Shown piece after piece: positions 15,657 through 50,017 of a stretch of DNA of 53,740 nucleotides. Source of the stretch: a bacterium (GTDB lineage: Bacteria; Cyanobacteriota; Vampirovibrionia; Gastranaerophilales; JBAXKC01); NCBI GenBank assembly GCA_037137535.1, contig JBAXKC010000019.1, positions 1 to 53,740 on the forward strand. The letters run 5' to 3'. How positions within the stretch are numbered: position 1 is the stretch's first letter; every line of letters begins with the position of its first letter. The translations under genes were made by a program, and so were the position numbers. A model generated the notes under the pieces. That model was not told where the DNA came from. It did not search any database and was given only the letters and a program-made list of their open reading frames with translations.

Positions 15657-15666
15657 AATTTAAAAA

Positions 15667-16509: not shown

Positions 16510-16529
16510 TTATTACAAGTAGGAAATAG

Positions 16530-16547: not shown

Positions 16548-16563
16548 TAGCTATCTTTTTATT

Positions 16564-17247
16564 ATGAAAATTGCAACCTGGAATATCGAAAGGCCTTCTG
16601 CAAACTCTAAAAGAGTCCCCTTTATTCTTAATGAGCTAAGAAGAATAAAAGCGGATATATTCATCTTGACGGAAAGCAACGAGTGTATCATTCCAAATTC
16701 TTCATACCATATTAAGAACTCTAGCCCCTTTGTTGAGTTTCAGCCACAAAAAGGGGAAGTTCGCGTAAGTATACTTTCTAGGTATTCCATTATTTCAGAG
16801 GAAGAAACTTTTCAATCAGATAAAAGCGCTTGTATAGTACTTGATACAACTATTGGAAAGCTGGCAGTATATGGAACGATTATAGGTATAACTGGAAACA
16901 GGGCTCCGGATTTTCAAAAAGACTTGGACATGATTATAAAGGATATTGACCACATCAGTAAGCTATATCCTTTATGTATCGCTGGGGATTTCAACATGTC
17001 ATTCTCTGATATTTACTATTTCACAAAGGAAGGGAAGGAAAAACTGAACGCTTGCTTTGAGCGGAACAATTTAATAAATATGACTGCGGGAGTAAAAAAT
17101 AATATCGATCATATTGTTTTACCCCAAAACCTTGCTTCTCTTCAAAACGGGCAACCAAAAGTGTGGAATAATGTAAATAAATTAGAAAAGAAAGATTGTT
17201 TGAGTGATCATCAAGGTGTCTGTGTAGAAATTAATTACTCATTATAA
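16564..17247 (+). CDS. Endonuclease/exonuclease/phosphatase (EEP) family protein
   Basis: KIATWNI, LTE, AGDFN, IDHI, SDH. Confidence 0.9.
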   Translation: MKIATWNIERPSANSKRVPFILNELRRIKADIFILTESNECIIPNSSYHIKNSSPFVEFQPQKGEVRVSILSRYSIISEEETFQSDKSACIVLDTTIGKLAVYGTIIGITGNRAPDFQKDLDMIIKDIDHISKLYPLCIAGDFNMSFSDIYYFTKEGKEKLNACFERNNLINMTAGVKNNIDHIVLPQNLASLQNGQPKVWNNVNKLEKKDCLSDHQGVCVEINYSL

Positions 17248-17276
17248 ATAGGTGGTGATCTAAGAATATAATTTTG
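17241..17276 (+). promoter_or_regulatory. Motif B operator plus -7 box
   Basis: ATTATAAATAGGTGGTGAT-N9-TAATTTTG. Confidence 0.6.
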
Positions 17277-17395
17277 AATTCATAAAAGCACTTAAATTTG
17301 CTTTATCATCAAGAACCCTTCAATGGGTACCAACCGAGAGCAACAACTCCACGGTGGTAAAATGATGAGGACTTACAGTCAAAATAAAATGTAAA
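17269..17395 (+). repeat. 127-bp exact direct repeat, copy 1
   Basis: Identical to 18434-18560; weaker similarity continues to the ATGs (TCATACTATG in both). Confidence 0.95.
17306..17395 (+). ncRNA. Candidate minimal SAM-I-family (SAM-I/IV-like) riboswitch aptamer, copy 1
   Basis: P1 UCAUC/GAUGA, J1/2 AAGA, short P2 ACCC/GGGU, P3 ACCAACC...GGUGGU, AA, 3' hairpin GAC/GUC. Starts just after the -7 box TAAATTTG (17293-17300). Confidence 0.55.
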
Positions 17396-17444
17396 CTCCT
17401 TATTTCTTCTTGGTTTGATTTTTTAACTTTTAAATTATCATACT

Positions 17445-17720
17445 ATGTCAAACACGGAACACGAATTACCAAAACAAGAAATCAAGAATTCTGAAGAAAG
17501 GACATCCTTAGAAATATTAAACAGTAAGCGTATGTGGGACAAAGCCGGAACCGGATTTTCTATACCATATCAGAAACCTTCCCAAACTACCCGATCATGG
17601 AAGCATACTGACATATTAAAAGAATGTAATGAAGACTTGGGAATTAAAACTACAAGTTCAGATAGTTCTTCTTCTGATGAAAACTCAATAGAAATAACAT
17701 TTTTTAAAAAGAAACAATAA
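17445..17720 (+). CDS. Hypothetical protein
   Basis: 91-aa ORF directly behind leader copy 1. Confidence 0.55.
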   Translation: MSNTEHELPKQEIKNSEERTSLEILNSKRMWDKAGTGFSIPYQKPSQTTRSWKHTDILKECNEDLGIKTTSSDSSSSDENSIEITFFKKKQ

Positions 17721-17791
17721 AAGTCAGACTGAGAGTATTCTAATCGGAAGAAATTCCTACTGATTGGACTCGCTTTGTAAATTAGAAATCA

Positions 17792-18187
17792 ATGATGACA
17801 AACGCTTATATAGATCAAATATTAATTGCTGTCGGATTAAAACGCAGAATTATAGCTAAGGATCCACAATTTTATGTTTGTGACAAAACTCAATTCATCG
17901 AATATGTTTCAAAACAGTACCAACAAAATTCGGAGCTAAGGGAAATGGATGAAGTCTACAGCATGTGTGAACAAATACTGTTACATAAAGAATCTGGATT
18001 AAGGTTTAGATATTCAACCTATGAGAACTATGTTGGAGATGAAGTTGAGTATAAATTAATTGAAATGTTTGTATTGAATAGCCTTAATCAACAGTTAGAG
18101 CTGATAGAAGTTAATATGAGAACAAGGGTAGTAGTAACTAAAGAGGGTCATTTTTCATTTGATGAATTGAGTAAATCCAAATATTAA
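17792..18187 (+). CDS. Hypothetical protein
   Basis: 131-aa ORF. Confidence 0.6.
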   Translation: MMTNAYIDQILIAVGLKRRIIAKDPQFYVCDKTQFIEYVSKQYQQNSELREMDEVYSMCEQILLHKESGLRFRYSTYENYVGDEVEYKLIEMFVLNSLNQQLELIEVNMRTRVVVTKEGHFSFDELSKSKY

Positions 18188-18235
18188 AACCAAAAATGAT
18201 AATAAAATCCTAATTGTGTAAAGTAAACAAACACC

Positions 18236-18409
18236 ATGGCTAAATATGGATTTTCCTTTTCCTGGAAACGAGCTCTTGGAGTAACAAGCGCCAAACAAAA
18301 GTTTGCTCGACAAACCGGTATCCCAACTACCAAAACCGGGATGGAAAGAAAGTTAGGTGGATCAATTGTTAGTTTACTATTAGGTTTATTTGGTGGAAAG
18401 AAGAAATAG
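18236..18409 (+). CDS. Small basic conserved hypothetical protein (57 aa), absent from the ORF track
   Basis: MAKYGFSFSWKRALGVTSAKQKFARQTGIPTTKTGMERKLGGSIVSLLLGLFGGKKK; the FSFSWKRALG/TGIPTT pattern is one I recognise from small hypothetical proteins. Confidence 0.75.
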   Translation: MAKYGFSFSWKRALGVTSAKQKFARQTGIPTTKTGMERKLGGSIVSLLLGLFGGKKK

Positions 18410-18441
18410 ACAATAGGTGGTAATCTGATAATTTAATTTTG
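18406..18441 (+). promoter_or_regulatory. Motif B operator plus -7 box
   Basis: ATAGACAATAGGTGGTAAT-N9-TAATTTTG. Confidence 0.55.
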
Positions 18442-18560
18442 AATTCATAAAAGCACTTAAATTTGCTTTATCATCAAGAACCCTTCAATGGGTACCAACC
18501 GAGAGCAACAACTCCACGGTGGTAAAATGATGAGGACTTACAGTCAAAATAAAATGTAAA
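18434..18560 (+). repeat. 127-bp exact direct repeat, copy 2
   Basis: Identical to 17269-17395 (offset 1165). Confidence 0.95.
18471..18560 (+). ncRNA. Candidate minimal SAM-I-family riboswitch aptamer, copy 2
   Basis: Identical to copy 1. Confidence 0.55.
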
Positions 18561-18613
18561 TCCCAAACTCATTTTTCCTGGTGTGATTTTTTAAACAATT
18601 AAAACTTCATACT

Positions 18614-19333: not shown

Positions 19334-19373
19334 TTGAATGCTCTAGGGATTAATAAATTTATAGATTGTTTAA

Positions 19374-20084: not shown

Positions 20085-20112
20085 TATGGTTTTTGACTTA
20101 TCCAATTATATA

Positions 20113-20147
20113 AATATAAATACACGGTAATCTCACTTATTATTTTG
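20113..20147 (+). promoter_or_regulatory. Motif B operator (degenerate) plus -7-like box
   Basis: AATATAAATACACGGTAAT-N8-TTATTTTG. Confidence 0.45.
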
Positions 20148-20167
20148 TGTAGTATAAATGAAATACA

Positions 20168-20851: not shown

Positions 20852-20930
20852 AACAGAAGCTAAATCTTTCCAAATTGAAATAAGCAAACACATACATATT
20901 TTAGTTCGTACTTTAGTAAAAACGCTTAGA

Positions 20931-21575: not shown

Positions 21576-21660
21576 AAACGCTTTTATAGAGCTTGTTACT
21601 TAGTTTTTCTATCAATTACCCTAAAGGAATAATTTTTATAACATAATTAAAAACGCTTTT

Positions 21661-23070: not shown

Positions 23071-23235
23071 AAATATATTTTTCAATAACCATGAAATAAC
23101 TAATAGTTCAATTTAATCATTTTTATTTGTTTTTTAAAATATGCTATCATCGAATTGGTTATCCGAATACATCTCTAAATAAGATAAATAAAAGCACTTT
23201 TATTCAGTTACATTTTTTAACACTTTTGTAAACGT

Positions 23236-23271
23236 ATTGTAAATAGGTGGCAATCTTCTACACGAACTTTG
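23236..23271 (+). promoter_or_regulatory. Motif B operator plus -7 box upstream of AAA-WYL2
   Basis: ATTGTAAATAGGTGGCAAT-N9-GAACTTTG. Confidence 0.6.
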
Positions 23272-23288
23272 TGTTTCAAACCTAATTT

Positions 23289-24959
23289 ATGCCTGAAACA
23301 AATGCCAAGGAAATTCTCCATGCCTGTCAACAATTGTTCAATAAAACAAAAGGAAAAAAAATTACACCAAGTTTACAAAAATTAATTGCCAGCTATCGCA
23401 AAAAGTTGACATCCACATTTTCGATTACCGACACCGAATCGTTAATATTCTCCTTTGTATTACTTGAAACATTTCGCGAAAGAGAAGTAAGCATTGATGA
23501 ATTAGTTAAACATTATGGAAATGATTTTTCATTGGTACCCGAATTTAATGCAGCACTTGAAAGTCTGAAAGAAAAAAAAATATTTTCACTAAGACCAGGA
23601 TCAATAAAAAGAAGAAAAGAAGTAGGGTATCGTTTTACGGTCAATCATCGAATCGTTGATGCTTTAATGAAGGGCGACTTATCTCTCATTCAAGTAGAAT
23701 CGCACCTGGTATTTTATGATATGCTCCAAGAGGTGAGTAGTATTATTGATATGCAGGATAATGATGTAATTACCTCTTGTGAACTTATCGAGGAATTAGA
23801 AGACGTTCTAAATTCAAATAGACAATTTCAGCAAGTTGATTGGCTTTTAAAACATAGTTTAACAAGGGAAGAACAAACCATGTTTTTTATTATATGCTGC
23901 GATACAGTAGCCGGGAATAATGTTACTGATATAGACGAATTATTAAAAAAGGTTTTTCATCTACCCTATGAAAGGCTTGATTATAAACGAAGTATAAAAG
24001 ATAAGACTAGTAAATTATTAGAAAAGGAGCTAATCACTTTTGATCCAAATAACTATGGTTATTTTGAAGGAGTATCACTTTCAGAAAATTCACAACAAAA
24101 CATTTTGTTTGGAGATTCACAACTTTTAAAAAAAAGCTTTAAGCCAAAGTTAGCTCTGTTGATAAATCATCAAACTATCGTTCCTTGTCAGCTCTACTAT
24201 AATCCAGCAGAAAATGAGCAAGTACAAGTATTGAACGATGCGTTGGAACAAAAAGCTTACCAGGAACTGACAGCGCAGTTAAAAAAGAATGGACTTGGCA
24301 CAGGATTTACTGTATTACTTCATGGCGCTGCAGGTACAGGTAAAACGGCCACCGTAAAAGAGTGGGCCAGACAAACAGGAAGAAATATTTTAATGGTAGA
24401 AGTTGATAAGATAAAAAGTGCCTGGGTGGGTGAGAGCGAAAAGCATTTGAATGACTTGTTTCAGGAGTATAAACGAGCTTGTACTTTCTATGAGAAACAC
24501 CCCATTCTACTGTTCAATGAAGCAGATGCTATCTTAGGGAAACGCATGCAGGTAAAATCCAGTGTCGATCAAATGAATAATTCTATCCAGAATATTCTAT
24601 TACAACAGTTAGAAGATTTTGAAGGAATCTTTGTAGCAACAACTAATCTCGCCGAACATTTAGATAATGCGTTTGATAGAAGATTATTATATAAAATAGA
24701 GTTCAAAGCTCCAGAAAAACCGGTTCAGCAACAAATATGGTCCTCGTTTTTTCCGGAACTTGAACAAGAAATTTTACGAAATATACATGATGAAGCCGTA
24801 TTAACTGGTGGTCAGATAATGAATGTTAAACGTAAACTGCTTGTGAACAATATATTGAGAAATCAAAAAACAACGCGGGAGCGGTTAATGATTGCTTGCA
24901 GAGAGGAAAGATCATTAAATAACAATAAACATCGAAGCGCCATCGGCTTCAGGGGATAA
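23289..24959 (+). CDS. AAA+ ATPase (SpoVK/Ycf46/Vps4-like)
   Basis: HGAAGTGKT, LLFNEAD, ATTN, LDNAFDRR. Confidence 0.9.
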   Translation: MPETNAKEILHACQQLFNKTKGKKITPSLQKLIASYRKKLTSTFSITDTESLIFSFVLLETFREREVSIDELVKHYGNDFSLVPEFNAALESLKEKKIFSLRPGSIKRRKEVGYRFTVNHRIVDALMKGDLSLIQVESHLVFYDMLQEVSSIIDMQDNDVITSCELIEELEDVLNSNRQFQQVDWLLKHSLTREEQTMFFIICCDTVAGNNVTDIDELLKKVFHLPYERLDYKRSIKDKTSKLLEKELITFDPNNYGYFEGVSLSENSQQNILFGDSQLLKKSFKPKLALLINHQTIVPCQLYYNPAENEQVQVLNDALEQKAYQELTAQLKKNGLGTGFTVLLHGAAGTGKTATVKEWARQTGRNILMVEVDKIKSAWVGESEKHLNDLFQEYKRACTFYEKHPILLFNEADAILGKRMQVKSSVDQMNNSIQNILLQQLEDFEGIFVATTNLAEHLDNAFDRRLLYKIEFKAPEKPVQQQIWSSFFPELEQEILRNIHDEAVLTGGQIMNVKRKLLVNNILRNQKTTRERLMIACREERSLNNNKHRSAIGFRG

Positions 24960-25131
24960 ATTTTTATTTTGAGAATCCTTTCTAAATAATCTGCAGCTTT
25001 ATAGTTAATTTAGTTAAATCAACGATCTAGAGCCAACTCCCCCTTGCGTAAGCATAGGCTATTGATTTATTCAAATGTCCATTAACTGTTTGTAACCCAC
25101 TTGCAAGCAACTTATCTTAAAGGTTTAGTTT

Positions 25132-26124
25132 ATGCCCAGTAATAAGAATGCTGTATTACGTTATCGCATCATTGATGGCTGTTTAACCAACCCCTATCAT
25201 AAGTACCCATCATTGGATTATATCCAAAAAAAAATAGAGGAGCAATTGAACAATGCAATTTCCGTGTCGATGATTCATAAGGACTTCAAGTCTATGAAAG
25301 AGATTTACAGTGCGCCAATCAAATTTAATAAAATAAGGGAGGGATATCATTATACAGAGGATGGATTTTCTATCAAGGAATTCCCGTTAACAACTGAAGA
25401 AATTTCGGCATTGGATTTTTCAACTGCCTTACTACAAAACCTGAAAGGAACGAAGCTTTTTATTCAATTTGAAAATGCCATTAACAAGTTAACAGAGGGT
25501 TATCGGATAAGTAAGGTATTGGGTAAGTCTGAGAGGCAAGTCATTCAAATTGAAGAACCTACCAAAACGTTGGGTAACCAATGGCTGGAGCCCTTGTTGG
25601 AAGCCATTATACAGAAAAAAGCACTTGCTATCACTTATGCACGTTACGGCGGTGAGCCCAAAGAGCATATTGTGTCAACCTGTTTATTAAAAGAATACCA
25701 TAATCGATGGTATTTGGTTGGCTATTCAGCTAGGGTAAAGGATTTACTCGTAATGGCATTGGATAGGATCAAAGCGGTTGACCCTTCTAAATCCCCGTAT
25801 CAAGCCGATATCAATTTTATCTCAGAAGATTTTTTCAAGTATAGTTTTGGAATTACGCAAATCCATGGAGCCAAGCCAGAAAAGATACTATTGTCTTTTA
25901 CCCCCCATCAGGCTCAGTATATCCTGAGTCAGCCCCTTCATCAATCACAAAAGCTAATTCTTGAAAACAGCAAAGAGGTACAAATTGAGTTGGAAGTATA
26001 TATCACCCAAGAGTTGATCATGAGCATTCTAGGATATGGAGCCGGTGTGAAGGTTTTAAAACCAGTTCATTTCAAAAAACAAATAAAGGAGTTAATACAG
26101 CAAATGCTTGTTAATTATAAATAG
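25132..26124 (+). CDS. WYL domain transcriptional regulator 2
   Basis: LRYRIIDGCL N-terminus, LKEYHNRWYL, ALDRI, QPLHQSQ. Confidence 0.93.
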   Translation: MPSNKNAVLRYRIIDGCLTNPYHKYPSLDYIQKKIEEQLNNAISVSMIHKDFKSMKEIYSAPIKFNKIREGYHYTEDGFSIKEFPLTTEEISALDFSTALLQNLKGTKLFIQFENAINKLTEGYRISKVLGKSERQVIQIEEPTKTLGNQWLEPLLEAIIQKKALAITYARYGGEPKEHIVSTCLLKEYHNRWYLVGYSARVKDLLVMALDRIKAVDPSKSPYQADINFISEDFFKYSFGITQIHGAKPEKILLSFTPHQAQYILSQPLHQSQKLILENSKEVQIELEVYITQELIMSILGYGAGVKVLKPVHFKKQIKELIQQMLVNYK

Positions 26125-26149
26125 GCGGTAATGGGGTTTATTAAGTTTG
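26114..26149 (+). promoter_or_regulatory. Motif B operator plus -7 box overlapping the WYL2 stop codon
   Basis: ATTATAAATAGGCGGTAAT-N9-TAAGTTTG. Confidence 0.6.
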
Positions 26150-26300
26150 GTACTTAATAAAATCAATAATAGACTGATCTAAATAACATAGGAAATTAAG
26201 CTTTAAAAAACCAAACTCGGGTTTGACAAAACAGTTATTGTCTCCTGTGAAATGTCATCTTTTAGTGGTTTTAAAATTACTAAATTGTAGGACGCGATAT

Positions 26301-27794
26301 ATGGAAAAGCTCCCTAAACACATTCTCTCCAAGTCAACCTTTATGAAAGGCTGCCAATGCCCCAAAGCATTGTGGTTATATAAGCATCAGCCCGAACTTA
26401 GAACCGAGGTAAGTGATCAGCAACAAGCCATTTTTGATCAGGGAACTAATGTGGGAAAACTGGCAGAGCAATTATTTCCAGATGGTGTAGATGCCAGGCC
26501 AGAAAACACTTTCGAGTACCAGCAATCAGTAGTGGATACTCAGAAATTTATAGCTCAAGGCAACAATGTAATTTATGAAGCTGCATTTCAGTACGATCAG
26601 GTAATGGCTGCTTTGGATATTTTGGTTTGCAATAGAGGTAAGTGGAATGCGTATGAAGTAAAAAGTAGTACCAGTGTTAGCGATGCTATTTTGCAGGATG
26701 CAGCCTTACAATATTATGTGATAACCCAATTTGGAATGCCATTGGTTGATTTTAGTATCGTTTATATCAATAATGAATATGTTCGGGAAGGAGATTTAGA
26801 TTTAAATAAACTCTTTGTGATAGAATCGGTGTTGGAAAAGGTATTAGAGTTACAACCCTTGATTGCTGCAAAAATCCCTGAACTGAAAAGAGTTGCAAAG
26901 CTAACCGAAGTGCCCCAACGAGATATTGGTCCACATTGTAGTGACCCATATGTTTGTGATTTTATGGAACATTGCTGGCAACATATTCCCGAAGATTCAG
27001 TGTTTGATTTACGAGGCCATGGTAGTGGACCAAAGGCATTTGAGTTATATGAGCAGGGAATCTTGTTATTGTCTGATATCCCAGATGACTTTAAACTGAA
27101 TACTTCTCAACAAATCCAGGTTACTGCTCATAAAACAGGTGAGCCAGTAATTAATAGAGCTGCATTGGAAGAATTCTTAGATCAGTTAGAATATCCTTTG
27201 TATTTCATGGATTTTGAAACCTTTCAATGTGCAGTTCCTGAATATGATGGAATCAGGCCTTATCAGCAAATTCCATTTCAGTATTCTGTCCATCGGGTAG
27301 ATGCACCAGAAGCAGAATTGTTTCATTTTGAATGGCTGGGTGAATCAGGAACAGATCCAAGAAAGGATTTTATTGAGAACTTATTAAGTGTGATGGGGAA
27401 AATGGGATCGATAGTTACTTACAATTCATCATTTGAAAAAGGCCGGTTAAGTGAATTGGCTATCCAGTTTCCTCGAAAAGCTAAAGCGATAGAAGCTTTA
27501 CAAGATAGAATCATTGATTTAATGAGCCCGTTCAGAAGTAAGCACTATTATTTACCAATATTGAAAGGATCTTATAGTATTAAACAGGTGTTACCTGCTT
27601 TAGCACCCGAATTAAGTTATGATGATTTAGAAATTGGAAATGGGAGTGATGCCAGTTTAATATTTTCTAAATTACGGTCAGAGAAAAGTGTTTCTGTAAT
27701 TAGGAAAACGAAAAATGATTTATTGAAATATTGCGGAATGGATACACTTGCAATGGTTAAATTGTTGAATAAACTCCAAAGTGAGATTTACTAA
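26301..27794 (+). CDS. Cas4/RecB-like nuclease fused to a DUF2779 RNase H/DnaQ-like domain
   Basis: LSKS..CQCPK, DIL...EVKS, QYY, HCx5Cx5C Cys cluster; YFMDFET...YCGMD. ATG at 26301 preferred over TTG 26223. Confidence 0.85.
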   Translation: MEKLPKHILSKSTFMKGCQCPKALWLYKHQPELRTEVSDQQQAIFDQGTNVGKLAEQLFPDGVDARPENTFEYQQSVVDTQKFIAQGNNVIYEAAFQYDQVMAALDILVCNRGKWNAYEVKSSTSVSDAILQDAALQYYVITQFGMPLVDFSIVYINNEYVREGDLDLNKLFVIESVLEKVLELQPLIAAKIPELKRVAKLTEVPQRDIGPHCSDPYVCDFMEHCWQHIPEDSVFDLRGHGSGPKAFELYEQGILLLSDIPDDFKLNTSQQIQVTAHKTGEPVINRAALEEFLDQLEYPLYFMDFETFQCAVPEYDGIRPYQQIPFQYSVHRVDAPEAELFHFEWLGESGTDPRKDFIENLLSVMGKMGSIVTYNSSFEKGRLSELAIQFPRKAKAIEALQDRIIDLMSPFRSKHYYLPILKGSYSIKQVLPALAPELSYDDLEIGNGSDASLIFSKLRSEKSVSVIRKTKNDLLKYCGMDTLAMVKLLNKLQSEIY

Positions 27795-27816
27795 AATTGA
27801 ATAAAGGTATTTTCAA

Positions 27817-32152: not shown

Positions 32153-32162
32153 AATAACACCA

Positions 32163-33194
32163 ATGAACTATTTGGAAATTTTTACAGAATTGATTGAGAT
32201 ACCGAAATCAACCAATAAGTATATAACAAGATTGGTTGATTTTGATAAAACAAACCCATGCCGATATAAAATTATTTTAGCCGTCGATAAAGATGAAAAT
32301 AATCAGCAATGTGTTATAATTCAATTAAAAAATGGTGGTCCACATTCAAAAGTTATTATAAACAATATCAATACCCTTAATAGTATCAAAATTGATATGT
32401 TTCCAGCTGAAATCGGATCTGAACTTGATGTATATTATTCTATTAAACTCTCTTCGAACACAGAAGATGAAATATTTTATACATTCATTGCTGATATAAT
32501 TGCTACAGCCAAAAATTCTACTTCTGACCTTATTGTTTTGGATATTCTCAAAAGGGTAAAATCATGGATGAATTTTTTTAAAGCGAAAAACTCAGGAATA
32601 CTAAATGATAACAGGCAAATTGGTCTTTTTGCTGAATTGTCGCTTTTAAAAATGCTACTGGAAAAAAATACAAACGATCTTTTAGATATTATTTTAAGCT
32701 GGGTGGGGCCCAGGGGCCAGAACCAGGATTTTATTTTTAAAAATAAATGCGCTTTTGAAGTTAAATGTTCAACCAATAATAATCCATTTGAAGTAACAAT
32801 TAATAATGAGTATCAGCTTGATTGCAGTGATCTTAAAAAACTATTTCTTACAACTTTTCAAGTAAAAAGGCATAAAAATACCGAATCATCCAATTTTTTA
32901 ACACTCCCTTTTATAGTATCTGAAATAAAAAAAATTCTTTCTAAAAATTCTAGCGCAAAATTTGAATTTGAAGGATTATTACTAGAGGTTGGATATCTTG
33001 CTGAAGCCGAGGTGGAATATTTGAAATACGGGTTTCAAATTATTAGTGGCCCTGTTTCGTATGAAGTTGTAGAAAGTTTTCCAAAGTTAGCAAGAGTGAA
33101 TTTGCCAAACCCTGTAAGTAAAGTAGAATACAAAATTAACCTTCAGAATCAGACTGTTTTTCCTGGAGATTTATTCAGCCAAATAGATAATTAA
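32163..33194 (+). CDS. DUF4420 PD-(D/E)XK protein (MzaD-like)
   Basis: GLFAEL, WVGP...QDF...FEVK; position between Z1 and AIPR. Confidence 0.88.
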   Translation: MNYLEIFTELIEIPKSTNKYITRLVDFDKTNPCRYKIILAVDKDENNQQCVIIQLKNGGPHSKVIINNINTLNSIKIDMFPAEIGSELDVYYSIKLSSNTEDEIFYTFIADIIATAKNSTSDLIVLDILKRVKSWMNFFKAKNSGILNDNRQIGLFAELSLLKMLLEKNTNDLLDIILSWVGPRGQNQDFIFKNKCAFEVKCSTNNNPFEVTINNEYQLDCSDLKKLFLTTFQVKRHKNTESSNFLTLPFIVSEIKKILSKNSSAKFEFEGLLLEVGYLAEAEVEYLKYGFQIISGPVSYEVVESFPKLARVNLPNPVSKVEYKINLQNQTVFPGDLFSQIDN

Positions 33195-33196
33195 AA

Positions 33197-35353
33197 ATGA
33201 GCCACTTCAAAACCTTAAATTCTACAGTCAATGATAAACTATCTGGAGAAGATGGATTTAATGCAGAGAATGCATTCACGCTGATATGTGCAGATTATTT
33301 ACAGGAAACAGTGGAAATCCCTGATTTTCAGATATCAGATTATTATCTTGAAAAAAAGGGTGGCCAGGATTTAAAAATAAATGGCTTTTGTTTAAATGAA
33401 AGTGAAGAGATGTTATATCTTTTTATAACAGATTATAACACCGATACCTCTGAAATAAATTTAAATCAAAAAAATGTTGAAAATTTATTTAAACAGTTAT
33501 ACAGAGTTTTAAATTATGTTATCAGGGTTAATGATGTTGATATTCCCCAATCCCATATTCTTTATGAACTAAATCAGTTTTTTGCAACAAAAAAAAGGGA
33601 TCAGTTACTTCAAATCAACTTTTATCTTTTCACAAATAACAAAGCTGTTAACAGAAAGGAAATCGATCCAAAATCGATTTTAGCAGGAAATGATCTTAAT
33701 TCCAAAATTGATTTTACATTCAGAATTGTTGATCTAAATGAGCTAGAAAGAATTCATAAAAACAACCAGGAGATTAATATTGAGGTATCGTTATTTTATC
33801 ATAAACCAATAACAGTATTAAAACCACATATTGATAATCCAAGTTATGGTACTGCAATAGCAATTTTCTCAGGAGAATTTTTATTTAATATTTATAAAGA
33901 ATTTAAAGGAAGGTTACTTGAAAGCAATGTAAGGTCATTTTTGTCAGCTAATGTAAGTGTTAATAAGGGAATCGCTTCTACTTTAGTTAACGATCCAGGC
34001 ATGTTTCTAGCATATAATAATGGGCTCTGTATAACAGTTTCAAAAATTGAAATGAATTCCGATGGAACAGTTAAAGAGTTTAAAAATTTTCAAATAGTAA
34101 ATGGAGGTCAGACCACATCTTCAATATATTTTTCAAAGAAAAAGAACGAGGGAATAAAACTAGAGCGTGTAAATGTAATGGCAAAAATTACTGAATTAAA
34201 GAGAAATATAGATTCGGCAAAAATTCAAAAGAAAATTGCAATTAATAGTAATTTACAAAATGCAGTTAAAAATTCAGATTTAACCAGCAATGAAGAATTT
34301 TTAAAAAATCTCCATACCTGCTCGAAAAAATTCAGAAACCCCAAGTCCAATAATTATTATTATTTTGAAAACACAAGAGGACAATATAAACTTGAGAGAG
34401 ATTTAAGCAGAGATGTAAATAAATTCAATAATCTTTATCCAATTAAAAATTTTATTGATAAATCTATGTTATCAATTTTATTTTTCTGCGCTTATAAAAA
34501 AGAATTAATGCCATATATATCTGTTCAAAGTGCAGAGAAAAGATATCTCATTTTAAATGCAAAAATGGATGAAGAAAATAAATTTTTGAGTGAAAATTAT
34601 TTTATACGAATTGCAGGTTCTTATATATTGTATCAACAATTTGATAAAATATACGGGACAGGAAAAAATGCTGTTGGAAAAATTAAAAAAAATGTAATTG
34701 CTTACTCAATTTCATTAATTCAATCCGATTTATTAAAAGATGGAAATAACATTGATTTTGCTGATATATGGAAAAAAGGTTTACCCGAAGGCTCGGAAAA
34801 TGTTATAAAAGCCTATCTGACTTATATAAACAAACTTCTTCTGGATAAACTTAATGATGGAAGACTGGATGAAGCATGTAAAAAAGAGGAGTCATGGAAT
34901 TTAATTCTTAAAAAAGCTGATATCAAACAAATCAACAATGTAAGTAAATGGCTGCCTGTTATTAAATATAAAAAAGATACAGAAAACACAATTAACTCAG
35001 ACTTTGCCTTGTTAGATAAACATGAGGTACTTATTGAGGAGATTAATAAAAAAATATACACTGCAGAAAGATATAAGAAATTAATTACGAGGGTTAAAAA
35101 TGAAATTGAATCAAATAGTGAGGATGGAATGTCTTTATATAACAGAAGTCATGAAACATTATTAAAAAATCACTTTCAGCCAAACCCTGGATGTACAGAA
35201 ATCACTCCGAAGAGTTATAAAATTTATTTGCTATCCTGTCAGAAAGCTGACGGAACAATTGTAAAAAACAGATTAAGCGAACTTAAAATTCAAATTGAAG
35301 AATTATCAAGAGTTTTTGATGCAGTTCTGAATGATCCTTTACTGACATTATAA
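33197..35353 (+). CDS. AIPR family protein (MzaE-like)
   Basis: NVRSFL, FLAYNNG, QIVNGGQT, NLQN. Confidence 0.92.
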   Translation: MSHFKTLNSTVNDKLSGEDGFNAENAFTLICADYLQETVEIPDFQISDYYLEKKGGQDLKINGFCLNESEEMLYLFITDYNTDTSEINLNQKNVENLFKQLYRVLNYVIRVNDVDIPQSHILYELNQFFATKKRDQLLQINFYLFTNNKAVNRKEIDPKSILAGNDLNSKIDFTFRIVDLNELERIHKNNQEINIEVSLFYHKPITVLKPHIDNPSYGTAIAIFSGEFLFNIYKEFKGRLLESNVRSFLSANVSVNKGIASTLVNDPGMFLAYNNGLCITVSKIEMNSDGTVKEFKNFQIVNGGQTTSSIYFSKKKNEGIKLERVNVMAKITELKRNIDSAKIQKKIAINSNLQNAVKNSDLTSNEEFLKNLHTCSKKFRNPKSNNYYYFENTRGQYKLERDLSRDVNKFNNLYPIKNFIDKSMLSILFFCAYKKELMPYISVQSAEKRYLILNAKMDEENKFLSENYFIRIAGSYILYQQFDKIYGTGKNAVGKIKKNVIAYSISLIQSDLLKDGNNIDFADIWKKGLPEGSENVIKAYLTYINKLLLDKLNDGRLDEACKKEESWNLILKKADIKQINNVSKWLPVIKYKKDTENTINSDFALLDKHEVLIEEINKKIYTAERYKKLITRVKNEIESNSEDGMSLYNRSHETLLKNHFQPNPGCTEITPKSYKIYLLSCQKADGTIVKNRLSELKIQIEELSRVFDAVLNDPLLTL

Positions 35354-35385
35354 TATACACCAAAATGAAAATAAATTAAATCAAT

Positions 35386-35796
35386 ATGGCTGATGTTCAT
35401 ACCAAAATTGTCAGAAGTTACAATATGAGGCAGATCAAAAGCAAAAACACTAAGCCTGAGCTGCTAGTTAGAAAATTTTTGTTCAGTAAAGGTTTTAGGT
35501 ACAGACTGCATTCGAAAAATTTACCTGGGAAACCCGATATAGTTTTAGCAAAATACAAGACAGTAATTTTTGTGAATGGATGTTTCTGGCATGGCCATGA
35601 AAATTGTAAATATTTTAAAATTCCAAAAACGAGGACAGAATGGTGGACTGAGAAAATAAATAAGAATAAAGAAAATGATACACTTAATTGTAATGCACTT
35701 GCTGATATGGGATACAATGTTATTAATGTCTGGGAGTGTAAAGTGAGAAACAATGAAATTTTCAAAATTCTCATTAATAAGATCGTAAAACCATAA
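35386..35796 (+). CDS. vsr: Very short patch repair endonuclease
   Basis: MADV, TKPELLVRK, LPGKPDIV, FVNGCFWHGH. Confidence 0.95.
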   Translation: MADVHTKIVRSYNMRQIKSKNTKPELLVRKFLFSKGFRYRLHSKNLPGKPDIVLAKYKTVIFVNGCFWHGHENCKYFKIPKTRTEWWTEKINKNKENDTLNCNALADMGYNVINVWECKVRNNEIFKILINKIVKP

Positions 35797-35838
35797 AATA
35801 TATTCCCGATAACCAAAGAAAATCTAAAATGAATATGT

Positions 35839-37833
35839 ATGCAAAAAATGACTTCTTTAAATATTGATAAATGGAGGCCTATAAACGAACCTCTTTTTAA
35901 GGCTTATATAGCATGTTATAATATGCTGGCAAATGGTAGCGAAACAGATCCGGGTGATGCAATGGTAAAGGCTCTATCAGATCAGAGTATTTTATATAAA
36001 GTAGGGAAAGATAATTATAAAACATTTTACATAATCGCAAGAGAATTGGGGGTATTTTATCAGGATAATAGTGGCAATTATTTTCTTGGTGAAAATGCTT
36101 TAAAATATGTTGATCAGAAAATTTCATATTCTGATTATATGAAACATTATATATTAAATTCTGAGTTCCTGATAAATAATATTATTGTTCATCCATTCAG
36201 TGAAATTACTAATTCATTAATTCCTGTTCCATTAAAATTTGAAAAATTAATCAACAAGTGTACAAATTGTATTCCTTTAAATGAAAGGGGAACAAATGCA
36301 ACTAATAATTTTTATGCTTTTTTGCAAAGGGCAATTGAAGCAGGTTTAGTTAAAAAAAACAATCTGAATGAATATTATTTGGTGAAAGACTTAAAAATGA
36401 CCAAGTCTGCCATTAACTATAGCTCTTTGAATGTCTCACAATTTACAGAACGGTTTATTGGAGGAGGAAAAATAAAACAGGAAAACATTGTAAAGCAAAT
36501 GATAAACAGAAATATAATTCCCGAAATAATGGATGGAACTATTGCAGGGTCTTTAGAAAATATAAAAAAGATTCCTTTGAACCAGATATTATTCGGACCT
36601 CCTGGAACTGGAAAGACTGATGCTACGGTAGAAAGGTCACTTGAAATACTTGGAATGTTATCTCAAGAGAGTGATGAAAAAATAAAAAGACAGCAAAACA
36701 GGGAAAAATTCAGGGAATTATTAAAGAGCAGGATTTTCTTTGTCACAATGCACCCTTCCTATAGTTATGAAGATTTTGTCCAGGGAATTAAACCTAAAAC
36801 CTCTCCTAAATTCGAATTATTATTTGAACCTAAGCCGGGAATATTTAAAATAGTTTCAGATTTGGCTAAAACTGTATACGAAAATGATGGCGAGCAATAT
36901 GATGACGAGATTGATAATAAGGATATTTTACGTGTTTGTTATTTTCTTTCAAAATTTAATAATAGAACAAGCAAAGAAGCAAATTTATATTTTGGATCAT
37001 CAAGCAACGGTGAAGTATTTTCAGTTGTCGGCTCAAAGTTAAAAGCTAACCCTAATTCAATAAAAAATCATCGGGATAAATTCGATTTCTTAACAGATTC
37101 AGGGAGAAAAGGTTGGAAGCCACAGAATGGGAGTACAGATGAATTGGATAATTCCATTTTGTGGCCTTATCAGGATATTTATATGGAGCTAAAAGATAAG
37201 ACATTTAAAGAGGTTAAACAGATAGTTGAATCAATTGAAAAGAAGGCCGATAAAAAAGTAATTAAAACTCTTGATAATTTAAATTATGTTCTTATTCTCG
37301 ATGAAATTAATAGAGCTAATATTTCTAAAGTTTTCGGTGAGTTAATCACTTTGCTAGAAGAAGATAAACGTATAGGTAGTGAAAATGAACTTTCTGTTAC
37401 CCTGCCTTCGGGTGAGGATTTTTCAGTACCTCCAAACCTTTATATTATTGGCACAATGAATACTGCTGATAAATCAATAGCACTTGTGGACATTGCATTG
37501 AGGAGACGATTTCAATTTATTCCGGTTTATCCTAACTCAGATATTGTAAGAGCCTATTGTAAAAGTGTTGATGTAAATGATAAGGCTGATTTTATGGATA
37601 AATTAAATAAAAAACTAAGAGAAATTAAAGGGGTGGATTTTCAGGTAGGTCATGCATATTTTCTAAAAAATAATTCCCTTGAGGATGTTATTAATGAAAA
37701 TGTAATTCCACTTTTGGTGGAGTATTTGCGAAATGATTTGGTAAAGGTTAAAGATATGATGGCTGATCTTTCTATAAAATTAGATGATAAATATTTTTCA
37801 GAAACCGGATTATTAATGTATAAGTCATCATAA
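35839..37833 (+). CDS. mcrB: McrB family AAA+ GTPase
   Basis: FGPPGTGKT, HPSYSYEDFVQG, ILDEINR, GTMNTAD, ALRRRF, GHAYF. Confidence 0.93.
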   Translation: MQKMTSLNIDKWRPINEPLFKAYIACYNMLANGSETDPGDAMVKALSDQSILYKVGKDNYKTFYIIARELGVFYQDNSGNYFLGENALKYVDQKISYSDYMKHYILNSEFLINNIIVHPFSEITNSLIPVPLKFEKLINKCTNCIPLNERGTNATNNFYAFLQRAIEAGLVKKNNLNEYYLVKDLKMTKSAINYSSLNVSQFTERFIGGGKIKQENIVKQMINRNIIPEIMDGTIAGSLENIKKIPLNQILFGPPGTGKTDATVERSLEILGMLSQESDEKIKRQQNREKFRELLKSRIFFVTMHPSYSYEDFVQGIKPKTSPKFELLFEPKPGIFKIVSDLAKTVYENDGEQYDDEIDNKDILRVCYFLSKFNNRTSKEANLYFGSSSNGEVFSVVGSKLKANPNSIKNHRDKFDFLTDSGRKGWKPQNGSTDELDNSILWPYQDIYMELKDKTFKEVKQIVESIEKKADKKVIKTLDNLNYVLILDEINRANISKVFGELITLLEEDKRIGSENELSVTLPSGEDFSVPPNLYIIGTMNTADKSIALVDIALRRRFQFIPVYPNSDIVRAYCKSVDVNDKADFMDKLNKKLREIKGVDFQVGHAYFLKNNSLEDVINENVIPLLVEYLRNDLVKVKDMMADLSIKLDDKYFSETGLLMYKSS

Positions 37834-39299
37834 TGCCTAAAGTTGTTAATCTTTTTGAATTTGGAAAATATTCATGGAAAAATTCTGAAGAATTCAGAAA
37901 TATCAGGGAAAAAGAAAAATTTTCAGATGATCTTGAGGATGTTTTGGATAACATATGGAAGGACAGGAAAAAATTTATATTTTCTGAAAACCTGTATTAC
38001 GAATCAATATCGCTGAAACAGAGATATATTGAGTTTAACAAGAATGAAATTATTCCAAGAAACTGGATAGGTAGTATTTATTTCAGAAGCGGTAAAGATG
38101 AGTATGTTTTAAATCTTCTGCCAAAAATATTCTATCAAGAAAATCATAGTTACAAACCAGAAGAAATTGACAGCATTTTTGCTCATATTCTTTGGTGGCT
38201 ATCGGGTAGTGAAAAGCAGAGCTTTTCTTCGATGGAAAGTTCACTTGGTGCAATGAATTCTGATTTTCTTGAGGTCCTTCTTTATATCTTTTCCAGTTAC
38301 ACTCTTGAAATATTCTCGGCGAATGCCTACCATTATTATAGCATTATTAATGAAGACCTTGATACAGTAAGAGGGCAATTAAATTTTTCAGCATACATTA
38401 AAAATTTTGCAGTAGGTAATAAACATAAATTAAACTGCACATTTGATTCATTGCAGTATGACAATCAGTTTAATAAAATTGTGAAATATGTATGTCATCT
38501 TTTAAAGGATTTCACAAAAAATGAGCACACACGTAAAAATCTTGAGGAAATCTTATTCATTCTTGATGAAGTGGAATATGAAATAATGTCAGTTGGAGAT
38601 TGTGATAAGGTTATACTAAATTCCATTTATACTGAGTTCAGAACAATTCTTGATAACTGCCGATTATTTCTCTCATCATTATCAGTTTATAAGTGGAAGG
38701 ATGATTATCAGATTTTCGCTTTACTTATTCCGTCAGAAAAACTATTTGAAAATTTCATTTTTTCGATTATAAAAAATTATGCTGTTTCACCTGTGATTAA
38801 TGTGGACAGACACAGAAAAGGCAAAAGACTTTTTCTTGCGACTCAGAGCCCAAGCCCGGTTCCCAACCGATTCAAAATGATTAATGATATTGTTGTGACG
38901 TTTAATGATAATTCATTAATTCTTTTCGATACAAAGTATAAAAAAATACACAACACCAATTCCCTTGCAGGGAACGATACATATCCTGAATATAATATTT
39001 CACAGTCTGATATTTATCAGATGATTTCTTACGCAGTAGGCAGTGGAATTTCAGATATCGGGCTGATATTTCCGGCATTTGCTGAAGATGATATATCAGA
39101 TTCGCTGCCCATTTATGAAATAAAAGATGAATTTTCACCTGCAACAATAATCAGGATACACATTTTTAAAGTGAATATTTTTCATAATGAAAATTTGAGA
39201 ATGTCGGTAAACGGAAAGCTTGAAGAAATGTTTAAGAAAACAAAAAAACACTTAATTCTGCAACTAAACGAAGCAATAAGTAAAGTAAAATCATTATAA
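37833..39299 (+). CDS. mcrC: McrC family nuclease subunit
   Basis: Coupled to mcrB; LPKI, VRG, LFENF, DIV...FDTKYK, DIYQMISY. Confidence 0.9.
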   Translation: MPKVVNLFEFGKYSWKNSEEFRNIREKEKFSDDLEDVLDNIWKDRKKFIFSENLYYESISLKQRYIEFNKNEIIPRNWIGSIYFRSGKDEYVLNLLPKIFYQENHSYKPEEIDSIFAHILWWLSGSEKQSFSSMESSLGAMNSDFLEVLLYIFSSYTLEIFSANAYHYYSIINEDLDTVRGQLNFSAYIKNFAVGNKHKLNCTFDSLQYDNQFNKIVKYVCHLLKDFTKNEHTRKNLEEILFILDEVEYEIMSVGDCDKVILNSIYTEFRTILDNCRLFLSSLSVYKWKDDYQIFALLIPSEKLFENFIFSIIKNYAVSPVINVDRHRKGKRLFLATQSPSPVPNRFKMINDIVVTFNDNSLILFDTKYKKIHNTNSLAGNDTYPEYNISQSDIYQMISYAVGSGISDIGLIFPAFAEDDISDSLPIYEIKDEFSPATIIRIHIFKVNIFHNENLRMSVNGKLEEMFKKTKKHLILQLNEAISKVKSL

Positions 39300-39300
39300 A

Positions 39301-42001: not shown

Positions 42002-42189
42002 TTTCTTTCTTCAATTAAATCTTTTACTTCCACTTCGAGAATACGGGCTATCTGAAAAAGAATTTCCAACTTTGGTTGTTTTCTATTCTGGACATAAGCA
42101 TTAACCACATTATAGCTTTTGCCAAGCTTTTCTGCAAGCCAAGTTTGTTTGATTCCCTTTTGTTCTAAAACCAATTTTATTTTATTCAT
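41998..42189 (-). CDS. XRE/Cro-type HTH regulator (RM controller-like)
   Basis: MNKIKLVLEQKGIKQTWLAEKLGKS...QP; ATGA overlap with dcm. Confidence 0.9.
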   Translation of the reverse strand: MNKIKLVLEQKGIKQTWLAEKLGKSYNVVNAYVQNRKQPKLEILFQIARILEVEVKDLIEERK

Positions 42190-42438
42190 AAAGAGGTTTA
42201 CTAAATAATCAGTATAAATATATCTCATTAAACGATATAATTATAAATTATTCGTGCAAAATACTAAATATTTGAGTATATAATCGAAAATTATTTTTAG
42301 TTAAAATTCAGTAAAAAAGGAAGATATTTATTTCAGTTCTGTCATACTCTAGCTCATCTTTTCAAAAAGTTTACCACCTGCAGAAAATTTCTAGCAAAAT
42401 TCTGTGATATCTAGAGGATACCCCAAAATGTTTCCCTT

Positions 42439-43296
42439 TTATATTATAGTGTTTGCGATTTGTAAACAGTTCGTTCTTAATAACGTTAATTCTTCCAATC
42501 GGTAAGGGTTATTTGAAATATTAAAAAGGGGTTTATATTTTAGTATTAATTCGGTTTCAATGCTTTTAAAATCACCAGAATACTCAATCCAGTTTACGGT
42601 CAGGTTTTTGCTTATCCATCCCATAATATGTTTTTCGTCTGTATTAGAAAACTTATAATTGTACTTATTCTTCATTTTGTTTAATGATCCCTTCAGAGGC
42701 AGGAATCCAAGAACTGCACCAATACTTCGGAAAAAAGTTCCATGCCCTTTAGCTCCCAATTCCTGGTTTAATAATCTTTTATATAGATTTTGAGCAGCTA
42801 TTCCAATATATATTATGTTGTGAGCTCTCTCTTCTGCATATTTTTTAAATACTGGCGAAAGCTTATTAATATTTTTAATTCGTATACAATAGATTCCCGG
42901 CTTGTTTGGAACAAGATTCTCTATGGAAGGGATATTCTTAAATTCTTGTGGATTCATTAAACCCTTGTCAATATTCAAGCTTGAGTAATTGAATACAGGT
43001 TGTATTTCAACTTCTTTAGTATTACCTTTTTTTAAACTAGTAGATAAATCAAAACGCATCTTTTTCCCAAAAGCTGAAGAATACGGAATGACCCATGATG
43101 TTCCTTTTCCTCCTGGTTGGAATGCATACGGCAATTTTCCTTTTCGTAATAAATCCCGAAGCGGTTTCCCTGGCCTTATTTTATTATCTGGCAGTAAATT
43201 AGCTATCGTAAGAACCGAATTTGCTTCTACAGGATCAATGCTGCTTTTTCCTGTCTTTGTAAGATATTTGTCTAAATAATCTATTATAGATTTCAT
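42439..43296 (-). CDS. GIY-YIG nuclease domain protein
   Basis: PGIYCIR...IIYIG...LYKRL...IETELI...PLFN. Confidence 0.8.
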   Translation of the reverse strand: MKSIIDYLDKYLTKTGKSSIDPVEANSVLTIANLLPDNKIRPGKPLRDLLRKGKLPYAFQPGGKGTSWVIPYSSAFGKKMRFDLSTSLKKGNTKEVEIQPVFNYSSLNIDKGLMNPQEFKNIPSIENLVPNKPGIYCIRIKNINKLSPVFKKYAEERAHNIIYIGIAAQNLYKRLLNQELGAKGHGTFFRSIGAVLGFLPLKGSLNKMKNKYNYKFSNTDEKHIMGWISKNLTVNWIEYSGDFKSIETELILKYKPLFNISNNPYRLEELTLLRTNCLQIANTII

Positions 43297-43425
43297 TTTT
43301 CAGATAATTTAATTGCCATATTTCCAATTTCTTGATAAAAAATTGCTATTTCGTTAATATAATCTGGGTCAGAGAATTTAAAGAATGAATAATCAAGTAT
43401 GACACATGTTAAATCTTCAAAATAT

Positions 43426-43791
43426 TCAATTTTGATACCTTCCTTTTTCAATGTGGAAAATCCAGTCAAATTGACCCCCTAATACCATATTTACATAAAG
43501 TGCATACAATGCTTTTATTTCATCTGTTATCTCTGCTTTTCTGATTGTTGTTGTGAACGTCACACATTTACTTCGAATGTTCTGGGCCGATCTGCTTTCT
43601 TTAACATGGTTCACCAGCGTCCTCAGCCAGAAGACGTTACTGTATATAAAAGAATTGCCGTAATACTCATCTGGAGTATTCGTGGTGGTAAAGAGTTGAT
43701 CATCCATCCTGAAATAACCAAGGGCAAGAAATTCGTCAAGCATCTGGCCTTTAAAGCCATCTTTCCCTGGCTGGATAAAGTGTTCATTCAT
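43426..43791 (-). pseudogene. Truncated arginyl-tRNA-protein transferase (ATE/Bpt-like) N-terminal part
   Basis: LDEFLALGYFRM...WLR...ALYALY resembles ATE_N; the reading frame runs into an IS-like end at about 43486. Confidence 0.55.
43452..43486 (+). mobile_element. IS21-family terminal repeat-like remnant
   Basis: TGTGGAAAATCCAGTCAAATTGACCCCCTAATACC, with 5' TG and the CAAATTGACCCC unit typical of IS21 ends; no istAB nearby. Confidence 0.55.
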
Positions 43792-43792
43792 A

Positions 43793-44017
43793 TCAGTCTT
43801 TTTTCTTTGGGCTATAACTGAAAGCAATTGCAACAATAGCAGCTGAGATAATGCCTGCTATCAAAAATGTAAGCATTACTGTTTTTAGAAGAATCTGCAT
43901 TGTTAGTTTTAGCCAAGGCCGCTGGATTTTGTTTGTAATAGCATCAATGCCTCCTGCAAAGCTCTGGTATAAAAAAAGGCCGCAAAAAACTAATCCGATA
44001 AGTTCAATGTAAATCAT
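43793..44017 (-). CDS. Small 2-TM membrane protein
   Basis: 74 aa, two hydrophobic helices; preceded by a motif B promoter. Confidence 0.6.
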   Translation of the reverse strand: MIYIELIGLVFCGLFLYQSFAGGIDAITNKIQRPWLKLTMQILLKTVMLTFLIAGIISAAIVAIAFSYSPKKKD

Positions 44018-44031
44018 AGGCTAATTTGAAG

Positions 44032-44067
44032 CGAAATTAAACCTGCTGATTACCGTCTATTTATAAT
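44032..44067 (-). promoter_or_regulatory. Motif B operator plus -7 box
   Basis: Minus strand ATTATAAATAGACGGTAAT-N9-TAATTTCG. Confidence 0.6.
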
Positions 44068-49981: not shown

Positions 49982-50017
49982 TCCTCCAATAGAATAGGGA
50001 ATACCCAAATACTTTTG
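49982..50017 (+). promoter_or_regulatory. Motif C operator plus -7 box
   Basis: TCCTCCAATAGAATAGGGAAT-N7-TACTTTTG. Confidence 0.55.

Follow-up and report, generated by a model that had tools for sequence, protein, structure and literature searches.

A phased palindromic motif beside WYL2-family genes, a probable WYL operator in a putative phage-defence island of Bacteroidota type

The window analysed here is a stretch of 53,740 nucleotides (positions 1 to 53,740) of contig JBAXKC010000019.1, or contig C19, in assembly GCA_037137535.1, which is assigned to the order Gastranaerophilales (Cyanobacteriota). Judging from its genes, annotated with Pfam and PADLOC, it is a phage-defence island of Bacteroidota type. 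It encodes an integrase, PDC-S06, an HNH gene, PDC-S26, the pair AAA1-WYL1, a deiminase-like gene, an EEP gene and the pair AAA2-WYL2, as well as DUF2779, MzaBCDE, Vsr, McrBC, a C5 methylase with a helix-turn-helix (HTH) and a GIY-YIG gene, and WYL3. A short palindrome, Motif B, precedes several of these genes together with a promoter box at a fixed distance; it is probably the operator of the WYL-domain protein WYL2.

Motif B sites and the units behind them

A search of the whole window for ATTRTAAATAGRYGGYAAT with up to three mismatches gives seven matches. In 100 shuffles used as control, 0.62 are expected (standard deviation 0.86; maximum 4) and none reaches seven. The original prediction had claimed six sites, and all six are recovered: 23236, 26114 and 44049-44067 (reverse strand) have no mismatch to ATTRTAAATAGRYGGYAAT, 17241 has one, 20113 has two and 18406 has three. 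The seventh match, at 13353, has two mismatches. Inside the 19-mer, Motif B is an imperfect palindrome with the 5-5-5 core TRYMA-ATASR-TKRYA.

A box lies nine nucleotides 3' of the 19-mer (spacing N9). TAnnTTTG is described as the -7 box of the Bacteroidota primary sigma factor, sigma-A, at -12 to -5 (PMC9723704, PMC7366714); a TAnnTTGY variant is also on record (PMC9723704). The N9 position reads TAATTTTG at 17241 and 18406, TAAGTTTG at 26114, TAATTTCG at 44067 (reverse strand), GAACTTTG at 23236 and TATTTTGT at 20113, where TTATTTTG at N8 is an alternative. At 13353 it reads GACCTTAG, which is no -7 box. Five of the seven sites therefore have an N9 box of at most one mismatch, and one further site has the TAnnTTGY variant.

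These Bacteroidota-type boxes are found close to gene starts; start codons follow 15-19 nucleotides past the box at 20113, 23236 and 44067. When the box is placed at -12 to -5, the 19-mer extends from about -40 to -22 and the 15-nucleotide core, centred near -31, from about -38 to -24. By this placement the operator core occupies the position of the -33 element. At 17-21 nucleotides upstream of the box the bases are fixed by the operator (YMAATAS), which rules out a TTG there.

The first site (17241..17276, forward strand) consists of operator ATTATAAATAGGTGGTGAT, a nine-nucleotide spacer and box TAATTTTG. It overlaps the TAA stop (17245-17247) of the EEP-family gene at 16564-17247 and heads the first of two riboswitches. 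The second (18406..18441, forward) has an operator with a degenerate left half, ATAGACAATAGGTGGTAAT, a spacer and box TAATTTTG, and overlaps the TAG stop (18407-18409) of a 57-amino-acid (aa) open reading frame (ORF) at 18236-18409. The two sites represent a single duplicated module without any difference from the motif centre onwards, box and riboswitch included; they are therefore not independent. The third site (20113..20148, forward), with operator AATATAAATACACGGTAAT and the TAnnTTGY-type box, heads o20168, o20931 and o21661.

The fourth site (23236..23271, forward; operator ATTGTAAATAGGTGGCAAT, box GAACTTTG) heads AAA2, whose start codon lies 17 nucleotides past the box. AAA2 (23289..24959, forward) is a 556-aa AAA ATPase (IetA/TRIP13-like) and a conserved regulon member; the same promoter probably also heads WYL2, which lies downstream. 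The fifth (26114..26149, forward; operator ATTATAAATAGGCGGTAAT, box TAAGTTTG) overlaps the TAG stop of WYL2 (26122-26124) and heads a block comprising DUF2779, MzaB, MzaC, MzaD, MzaE, Vsr, McrB and McrC (26223..39299, forward). As had been pointed out, three copies thus overlap upstream stop codons; this is expected, since two of the three reading frames of the motif contain TAA or TAG.

The last of the six (44032..44067, reverse; operator ATTATAAATAGACGGTAAT, box TAATTTCG) heads a 74-aa ORF with two transmembrane (TM) segments (43793-44017) and an ATE_C-like ORF (43426-43836). The latter matches only residues 8-98 of its 247-aa homologues and has no ATE_C domain; it is therefore truncated in the window. 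The 74-aa protein preceding it is unrelated and has an 81-aa relative in locus L017, one of the related loci described below. An NCBIfam search of the small target ORFs returned no names.

The regulon had been counted as six promoters. Five independent promoters and one duplicate are found, together with a possible seventh site. This site, AATATAAATACATGGTAAT (13353..13371, forward), lies within the 3' end of AAA1, 117 nucleotides before the WYL1 start, and falls in a variable coding stretch of AAA1 (EYKYMVM); its status as a seventh operator is uncertain. A Motif B site before AAA1 was looked for in the window and not found.

Two degenerate copies with the correct -7 box geometry are possible relics or weak sites. 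One is the palindrome TGCAAGTGGGTTACA (25089..25107, reverse; two mismatches; box GACATTTG at N9), about 25 nucleotides before the WYL2 start; at this position a divergent operator is present in relatives, and the copy is probably a relic or an autoregulatory site. The other, which is not counted as a site, is the weak half-site CTCCA-ATAGA-ATAGG, located N9 before a perfect box, TACTTTTG, between WYL3 and o50040 (49982..50017, forward).

Within the 2.95-Mb assembly the motif is confined to contig C19, which holds all three exact core matches and three of the seven one-mismatch matches. Motif plus N9 box gives four matches in the whole assembly and none for the reversed control. The bare 15-mer pattern is at noise level in this AT-rich genome (106 matches, 103 for the reversed control); specificity is obtained only with pattern plus box.

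The leaders behind the first two sites, previously described as riboswitch-like, are true SAM-I/IV riboswitches (Rfam RF01725). Aptamer 1 (17301..17396, forward; 60.4 bits) precedes o17445 (91 aa) and o17792 (131 aa); aptamer 2 (18466..18561, forward; 60.8 bits) precedes o18614 (239 aa) and o19374 (236 aa). Both exceed the gathering score of 41.1 and cover model positions 1-99 of 99. The genes gated by these riboswitches inside a defence island (o17445/o17792 and o18614/o19374) have no assigned function. A SAM-I/IV riboswitch also precedes homologues of o18614 in the related loci L014 (4114-4209) and L017 (8940-9035, reverse); Motif B was looked for directly upstream of the riboswitches in these two loci and not found. 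The riboswitches of the island may serve as a sensor of S-adenosylmethionine (SAM) depletion during phage attack.

Motif B in related loci and whole genomes

The relatives comprise 70 WYL2-related loci (numbered with the prefix L), 992 kb in total. Their WYL2 relatives are 50-70% identical to WYL2 in Chitinophagaceae/Sediminibacterium, about 40% in Flavobacteriales and about 30% in Bacteroidales. The core pattern occurs in 85 copies with at most one mismatch, compared with 20 copies of the reversed pattern. A TAnnTTTG box (at most one mismatch) lies within 0-25 nucleotides of 58 of the 85 copies and of none of the 20 reversed-control copies. The distance is constant: the box is exactly nine nucleotides from the 19-mer in 51 of the 58 boxed copies.

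This motif-box design spans Chitinophagaceae, Flavobacteriales and Bacteroidales. More distant relatives have the palindromes ATTGTAA-ATAGA-TTACAAT, TTTGCCA-ATACA-TGGCAAA and AATGCAA-ATACA-TTGCATT, which leads to TRYMA-ATASR-TKRYA as the general form. The symmetry spans about 5-7 nucleotides per arm, short of an R-BOX-like 11-5-11 repeat. Nine Flavobacteriales loci (among L045-L063) have the palindrome ATTGTAAATAGGTTACAAT, or one close to it, ahead of a conserved ORF of 84-85 aa which belongs to no Pfam family.

Three positions are typical in the relatives. Firstly, the motif is found just past the WYL stop, leading into RmuC or AAA1 and then DUF2779. In the closest relatives it lies over the stop codon of the WYL gene and is followed by the N9 -7 box and AAA1-DUF2779; a site at the stop of the WYL2 orthologue is present in L011, L015, L017, L018 and L022. 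AAA1 in relatives is thus headed by Motif B and followed by DUF2779, unlike the arrangement in the window. Secondly, the motif abuts the WYL start on the opposite strand and leads into a homologue of o19374. Thirdly, it is located before AAA2 and before the ATE_C-like gene; AAA2 homologues have the identical motif-N9-box design in L028, L031, L039 and L044, and ATE_C-like homologues are headed by the motif at eight sites in six loci.

Downstream of 95 sites are RmuC (12), o19374-like genes (9), AAA1 (8), ATE_C-like genes (8), AAA2 (6) and the WYL gene itself (2), along with defence cargo. The targets assigned to the motif in the window hold up in this comparison: homologues of AAA1/AAA2, DUF2779, the ATE_C-like gene, o19374 and o20931 are headed by it in relatives.

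Four of five whole genomes examined (G251-G254) have sites clustered within 30-55 kb of the WYL2 orthologue and few elsewhere; in the fifth, G255, neither of the two two-mismatch matches is near the WYL gene. Units headed by sites in G253 include the ATE_C-like gene, AAA2, o19374 with an HTH gene, and an RmuC-DUF2779-helicase-BREX-McrBC unit. Further sites there head a SLOG protein with a helicase, a TOTE system, an ExoX-like gene and a DnaB_C-like gene.

In 201 genomes from the family of G251, pattern plus box gives 50 matches in 39 genomes and 11 matches for the reversed control; a WYL2-family protein (E <=1e-30) is present in 70. By hand count, 16 of the 50 matches, spread over 13 genomes, share a contig with a WYL2-family gene and are no more than 4 kb from it; four of these 16 are about 40 nucleotides upstream of the gene start in divergent orientation. 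The WYL2-family proteins near sites in this sample are only 27-40% identical to WYL2; the operator is therefore conserved across the whole WYL2 family. The earlier proposal of a WYL2 operator serving a multi-promoter regulon is supported by comparison, in that WYL2-family genes of dozens of Bacteroidota genomes are flanked by the palindrome with its N9 box.

WYL2 and the direction of control

WYL2 (25132..26124, forward) is the proposed regulator, a protein of 330 aa. Pfam assigns WYL (PF13280, 6e-12) followed by WCX (PF25583, 9.9e-10), and PADLOC WYL models match too; there is no Pfam HTH match. The AlphaFold2 model (pLDDT 83.5) has N-terminal helices at 3-18, 28-39 and 45-59 and a beta hairpin at 63-74, so that the N-terminus is, according to the model, a winged HTH (wHTH) DNA-binding domain; it is joined by a three-helix linker to the WYL and WCX domains. 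This domain order is that of class A WYL transcription factors. In an alignment of 37 WYL2 relatives, conservation is strong at the N-terminus (MPxNKxALLRYRIIDxCLTN) and is also seen in the WYL core; K187, E188, W193, Y194, R212 and H270 are conserved across the alignment.

The model aligns over its full length to DriD, PafBC, CapW and BrxR in Foldseek, with E values of 1e-14, 1e-13, 2e-10 and 7.5e-9, respectively. By this ranking the WYL2 model resembles two activators, DriD and PafBC, more closely than it does CapW and BrxR, which are repressors. Its length agrees with DriD/PafBC chains (317-330 aa); CapW/BrxR chains have 266-290 aa. A sequence search of the PDB with WYL2 finds only PafBC chains (7p5x_AY, 9fnd_X; E ~0.005). 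The WYL domain ligand in DriD, PafBC and CapW is single-stranded DNA (ssDNA). WYL2 is presumed to be a homodimer; the dyad symmetry of its putative site is indirect support.

Motif B is probably the operator of a WYL2-family homodimer, most likely an activator resembling DriD, DdaA and PafBC, in sigma-A promoters of a Bacteroidota-type defence island. The dyad 5-N5-5 symmetry, the phasing to the -7 box, the occupation of the -33 position and the presence of sites at the regulator's own gene point to a WYL dimer which binds the motif and touches RNA polymerase in a fixed geometry. From these features and from the known relatives we infer binding by WYL2, its dimeric state, its ligand and activation as the direction of control. 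The WYL domain would bind a signal, by analogy ssDNA made during DNA damage or phage attack; the regulator would then dock at the motif and recruit or adapt RNA polymerase. Docking would switch on five independent units at once: the riboswitch-gated small genes (two copies via duplication), the o20168 group, AAA2-WYL2, DUF2779-Mza-McrBC and the TM/ATE-like genes.

WYL regulators with phased palindromic sites controlling repair and defence genes are already known: DriD, DdaA, PafBC, BrxR and CapW. In a full-text literature search, supplements aside, no paper was found that describes a Bacteroidota WYL operator or regulon. DriD of Caulobacter crescentus is described as a wHTH-WYL-WCX homodimeric activator (PMC13004042, PMC10853764) whose sites are 'positionally conserved', overlap the missing -35 and keep a constant distance from the -10 (PMC13004042). 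In the Foldseek search, DriD (8tp8) matches the WYL2 model best. The two systems share a palindrome at a constant distance from the -10-type element, and DriD drives several promoters at once. They differ in sequence, with 14-16% identity between DriD and WYL2; in operator, CGAC-N7-GTCG in place of TRYMA-ATASR-TKRYA; and in promoter type, sigma-73 with -10/-35 elements as opposed to the Bacteroidota -7 box. The DriD regulon is a chromosomal DNA-damage regulon, whereas Motif B belongs to a mobile defence island in which activation is presumed.

DdaA of Acinetobacter/Moraxellaceae is reported to be a WYL activator of DNA-damage and anti-phage genes with the motif CGWCA-N5-TGWCG (PMC12392091). 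This 5-N5-5 geometry matches that of Motif B, and the half-site sequence differs. In both cases one regulator joins repair-type and defence genes, here RmuC, DUF2779 and helicases with Mza, McrBC, BREX and TOTE. The DdaA regulon is described as genome-wide and as replacing SOS, whereas the sites reported here cluster within 30-55 kb of the regulator gene.

PafBC promoters in mycobacteria ('sigma adaptation') are described as having no -35 and a factor-specific -26 element directly upstream of the -10 (PMC8635444). PafBC accounts for the only PDB sequence matches to WYL2, and the downstream half-site of Motif B would be placed at about -28 to -24, like the -26 element. In contrast to the presumed WYL2 homodimer, PafBC is described as a heterodimer with one HTH on DNA and a non-palindromic element; the symmetric Motif B implies that both HTHs bind.

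BrxR and CapW are WYL regulators encoded in defence islands and controlling these, BREX and CBASS, and are reported to bind inverted repeats with a 5-bp spacer, with more than one box per island (R-BOX1, R-BOX2) (PMC9122601, PMC11662680). They differ in being repressors, in the R-BOX (11-5-11) being downstream of the promoter and in their weaker fold matches to WYL2; a phased multi-promoter design is not among the features described in the accessible parts of these two papers. The survey of the BrxR family is described as mostly restricted to Proteobacteria (PMC9122601). DriD-like WYL proteins are also reported to be enriched beside RT, WG_beta_rep and DnaB_C genes in Bacteroidota islands, in type XI-like retrons (PMC13712802). 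In G253 and G254, genes of these types lie behind copies of the motif. The accessible text of that paper treats WYL as an accessory module and describes no operator or promoter design.

A number of observations weigh against the reading as a WYL2 operator or against activation. The defence-island WYL regulators characterised so far, BrxR and CapW, are reported to repress (PMC9122601; PMC11662680). A perfect -7 box is present in 22 of the 51 phased sites and could drive constitutive transcription, which would need a repressor. The -33 element is reported to be weak, dispensable or undetectable in some Bacteroidota (PMC7366714); its absence is therefore no proof of dependence on an activator. 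WYL3 (48822..49829, reverse) is a paralogue which shares the conserved N-terminus (PKNKSAAIRFRVID...) with WYL2 according to Pfam and alignment; the binder within the window is therefore not unique, and cross-talk of WYL3 at Motif B is possible on this basis. (The paralogue WYL1, at 13489..14394, forward, has a different N-terminal DNA-binding domain by the same methods.) Covariation between recognition helix and half-site was checked across the relatives and gave no clear signal. Co-occurrence, counted by hand in the 201 genomes, is modest: 21 have both, 18 the pattern only, 49 the WYL protein only and 113 neither. The degenerate pattern gives noise matches that blur the association, and the closeness of 16 of the 50 matches to a WYL2-family gene tells more. 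Scans with a position weight matrix trained on the seven window sites are circular for those sites and were used as a lead only.

Several of these points would suit a BrxR/CapW-like repressor lying over -40 to -22 of otherwise constitutive -7-box promoters and released when the WYL domain binds ssDNA or another signal. This is a serious possibility of clearly lower probability. The operator does overlap the upstream part of the core promoter, and in relatives it abuts the start of the WYL gene itself, which fits autorepression; in the window, WYL2 lies downstream of AAA2 and the sites head many separate units. Strict N9 phasing (51 of 58) before unrelated genes in several classes of the phylum corresponds to what is described for the activator DriD, whereas the BrxR R-BOX is described as an 11-5-11 repeat downstream of its promoter (PMC9122601). 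The fold of the predicted model and the length of WYL2 also place it with DriD and PafBC rather than with CapW and BrxR.

A wider form of the activator reading is speculative and rather unlikely. A phylum-wide Bacteroidota WYL activator would replace the sigma-A -33 element and constitute a plug-in promoter for defence cassettes, the Bacteroidota counterpart of 'sigma adaptation'; any cassette behind a copy of the motif would come under one damage/phage alarm. The riboswitches would add an AND gate, with two promoters firing only if alarm and SAM depletion coincide. Such depletion could be caused by a phage SAM-degrading enzyme attacking methylation-based defence.

It is improbable that Motif B is read by a protein other than a WYL regulator, either another HTH protein of the island or an alternative sigma factor using motif and box as a two-part promoter. 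There is an HTH_3 gene at 41998-42228 of the window, and another in G253 adjoins the homologue of o19374. However, a WYL2-family gene consistently adjoins the sites and no other DNA-binding gene does, and the 5-N5-5 geometry is that of known WYL regulators; the dyad symmetry and the sigma-A type of the -7 box speak against a dedicated sigma factor.

Two contigs of a freshwater metagenome (X2) suggest island variants which differ by whole units: one joins 18415 to 20145 (motif to motif-promoter) across the unit of riboswitch 2, o18614 and o19374, and another replaces o19374 (window 19317-20055) with 54 other letters. These joints, the start of every unit with the motif, the variable order of units among relatives and the beginning of the 17241/18406 duplication in the motif centre are what a recombination or cassette-junction site exchanging island modules would give. 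This alternative, raised in the original prediction, is very improbable as the primary function: no recombinase travels with the motif (a homologue of the window integrase is present in one of 70 loci, L037), the fixed -7 box phasing and the short stereotyped distance to start codons are promoter features, the motif-to-box spacers are not conserved and the copies therefore did not arise by recent transposition of a repeat, each joint is seen in one contig whose sides are short and whose likeness is 85%, and occasional homologous exchange between repeated promoters would explain such hints without a dedicated function.

Remainder of the island, origin of the contig and significance

Two further segments adjoin the units headed by Motif B. 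The region 12401-17247 contains the second AAA-WYL pair (AAA1-WYL1) and, behind it, three small ORFs, a deiminase-like gene of Porphyromonas type and the EEP-family nuclease/phosphatase. In the region 40041-43296 (reverse), a small HTH_3 gene lies upstream of a C5 cytosine methylase, and a GIY-YIG nuclease is also encoded; the region looks like a controller-regulated restriction-modification unit, and adjoins the methyl-directed McrBC and Vsr genes.

Shine-Dalgarno motifs precede 7% of the 40 long ORFs of contig C19; the other contigs of 20 kb or more number 42, and in 41 of them the figure is 28-72%. Contig C39 is a second outlier, with 19%. Scarce Shine-Dalgarno motifs are described as expected for Bacteroidota (PMC6847099). 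A family-level genome search around the host assembly found only that assembly itself, and neither a WYL2 orthologue nor the regulon was found in 250 other genomes of the host's order. The pattern search at order level gives 38 matches in 34 of the 250 genomes (15 for the reversed control), with no genome above two; 13 of the 38 are one unrelated conserved sequence. The corresponding protein search with WYL2 finds matches to the C-terminal WYL/WCX part alone (best E 8e-20). Outside contig C19, the assembly has genes for flagellar rod and hook proteins; Bacteroidota are not known to have flagella.

Scarce Shine-Dalgarno motifs, Bacteroidota-type promoters, the integrase and WYL genes, a flagellated bin and an order without these genes together suggest that the contig is foreign to its bin. 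It is probably mis-binned or very recently transferred; the reading of the promoters assumes a Bacteroidota host. A probable binning error is thereby brought to light, and motif plus box can serve in annotation to flag members of the regulon and the borders of islands.

WYL regulators are increasingly seen as the sensors through which gene expression responds to DNA damage and phage attack, and those studied so far come from Proteobacteria and Actinobacteria. What is gained here is a precise operator, TRYMA-ATASR-TKRYA, a promoter layout of fixed geometry for the unusual sigma factor of Bacteroidota, and a set of targets that is conserved: AAA ATPases, RmuC, DUF2779, the ATE_C-like gene, the DnaB_C-like gene and several families of unknown function. 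The sign of the family's control, the signal it senses and whether the uncharacterised genes headed by the motif represent new defence or repair functions can now be tested.

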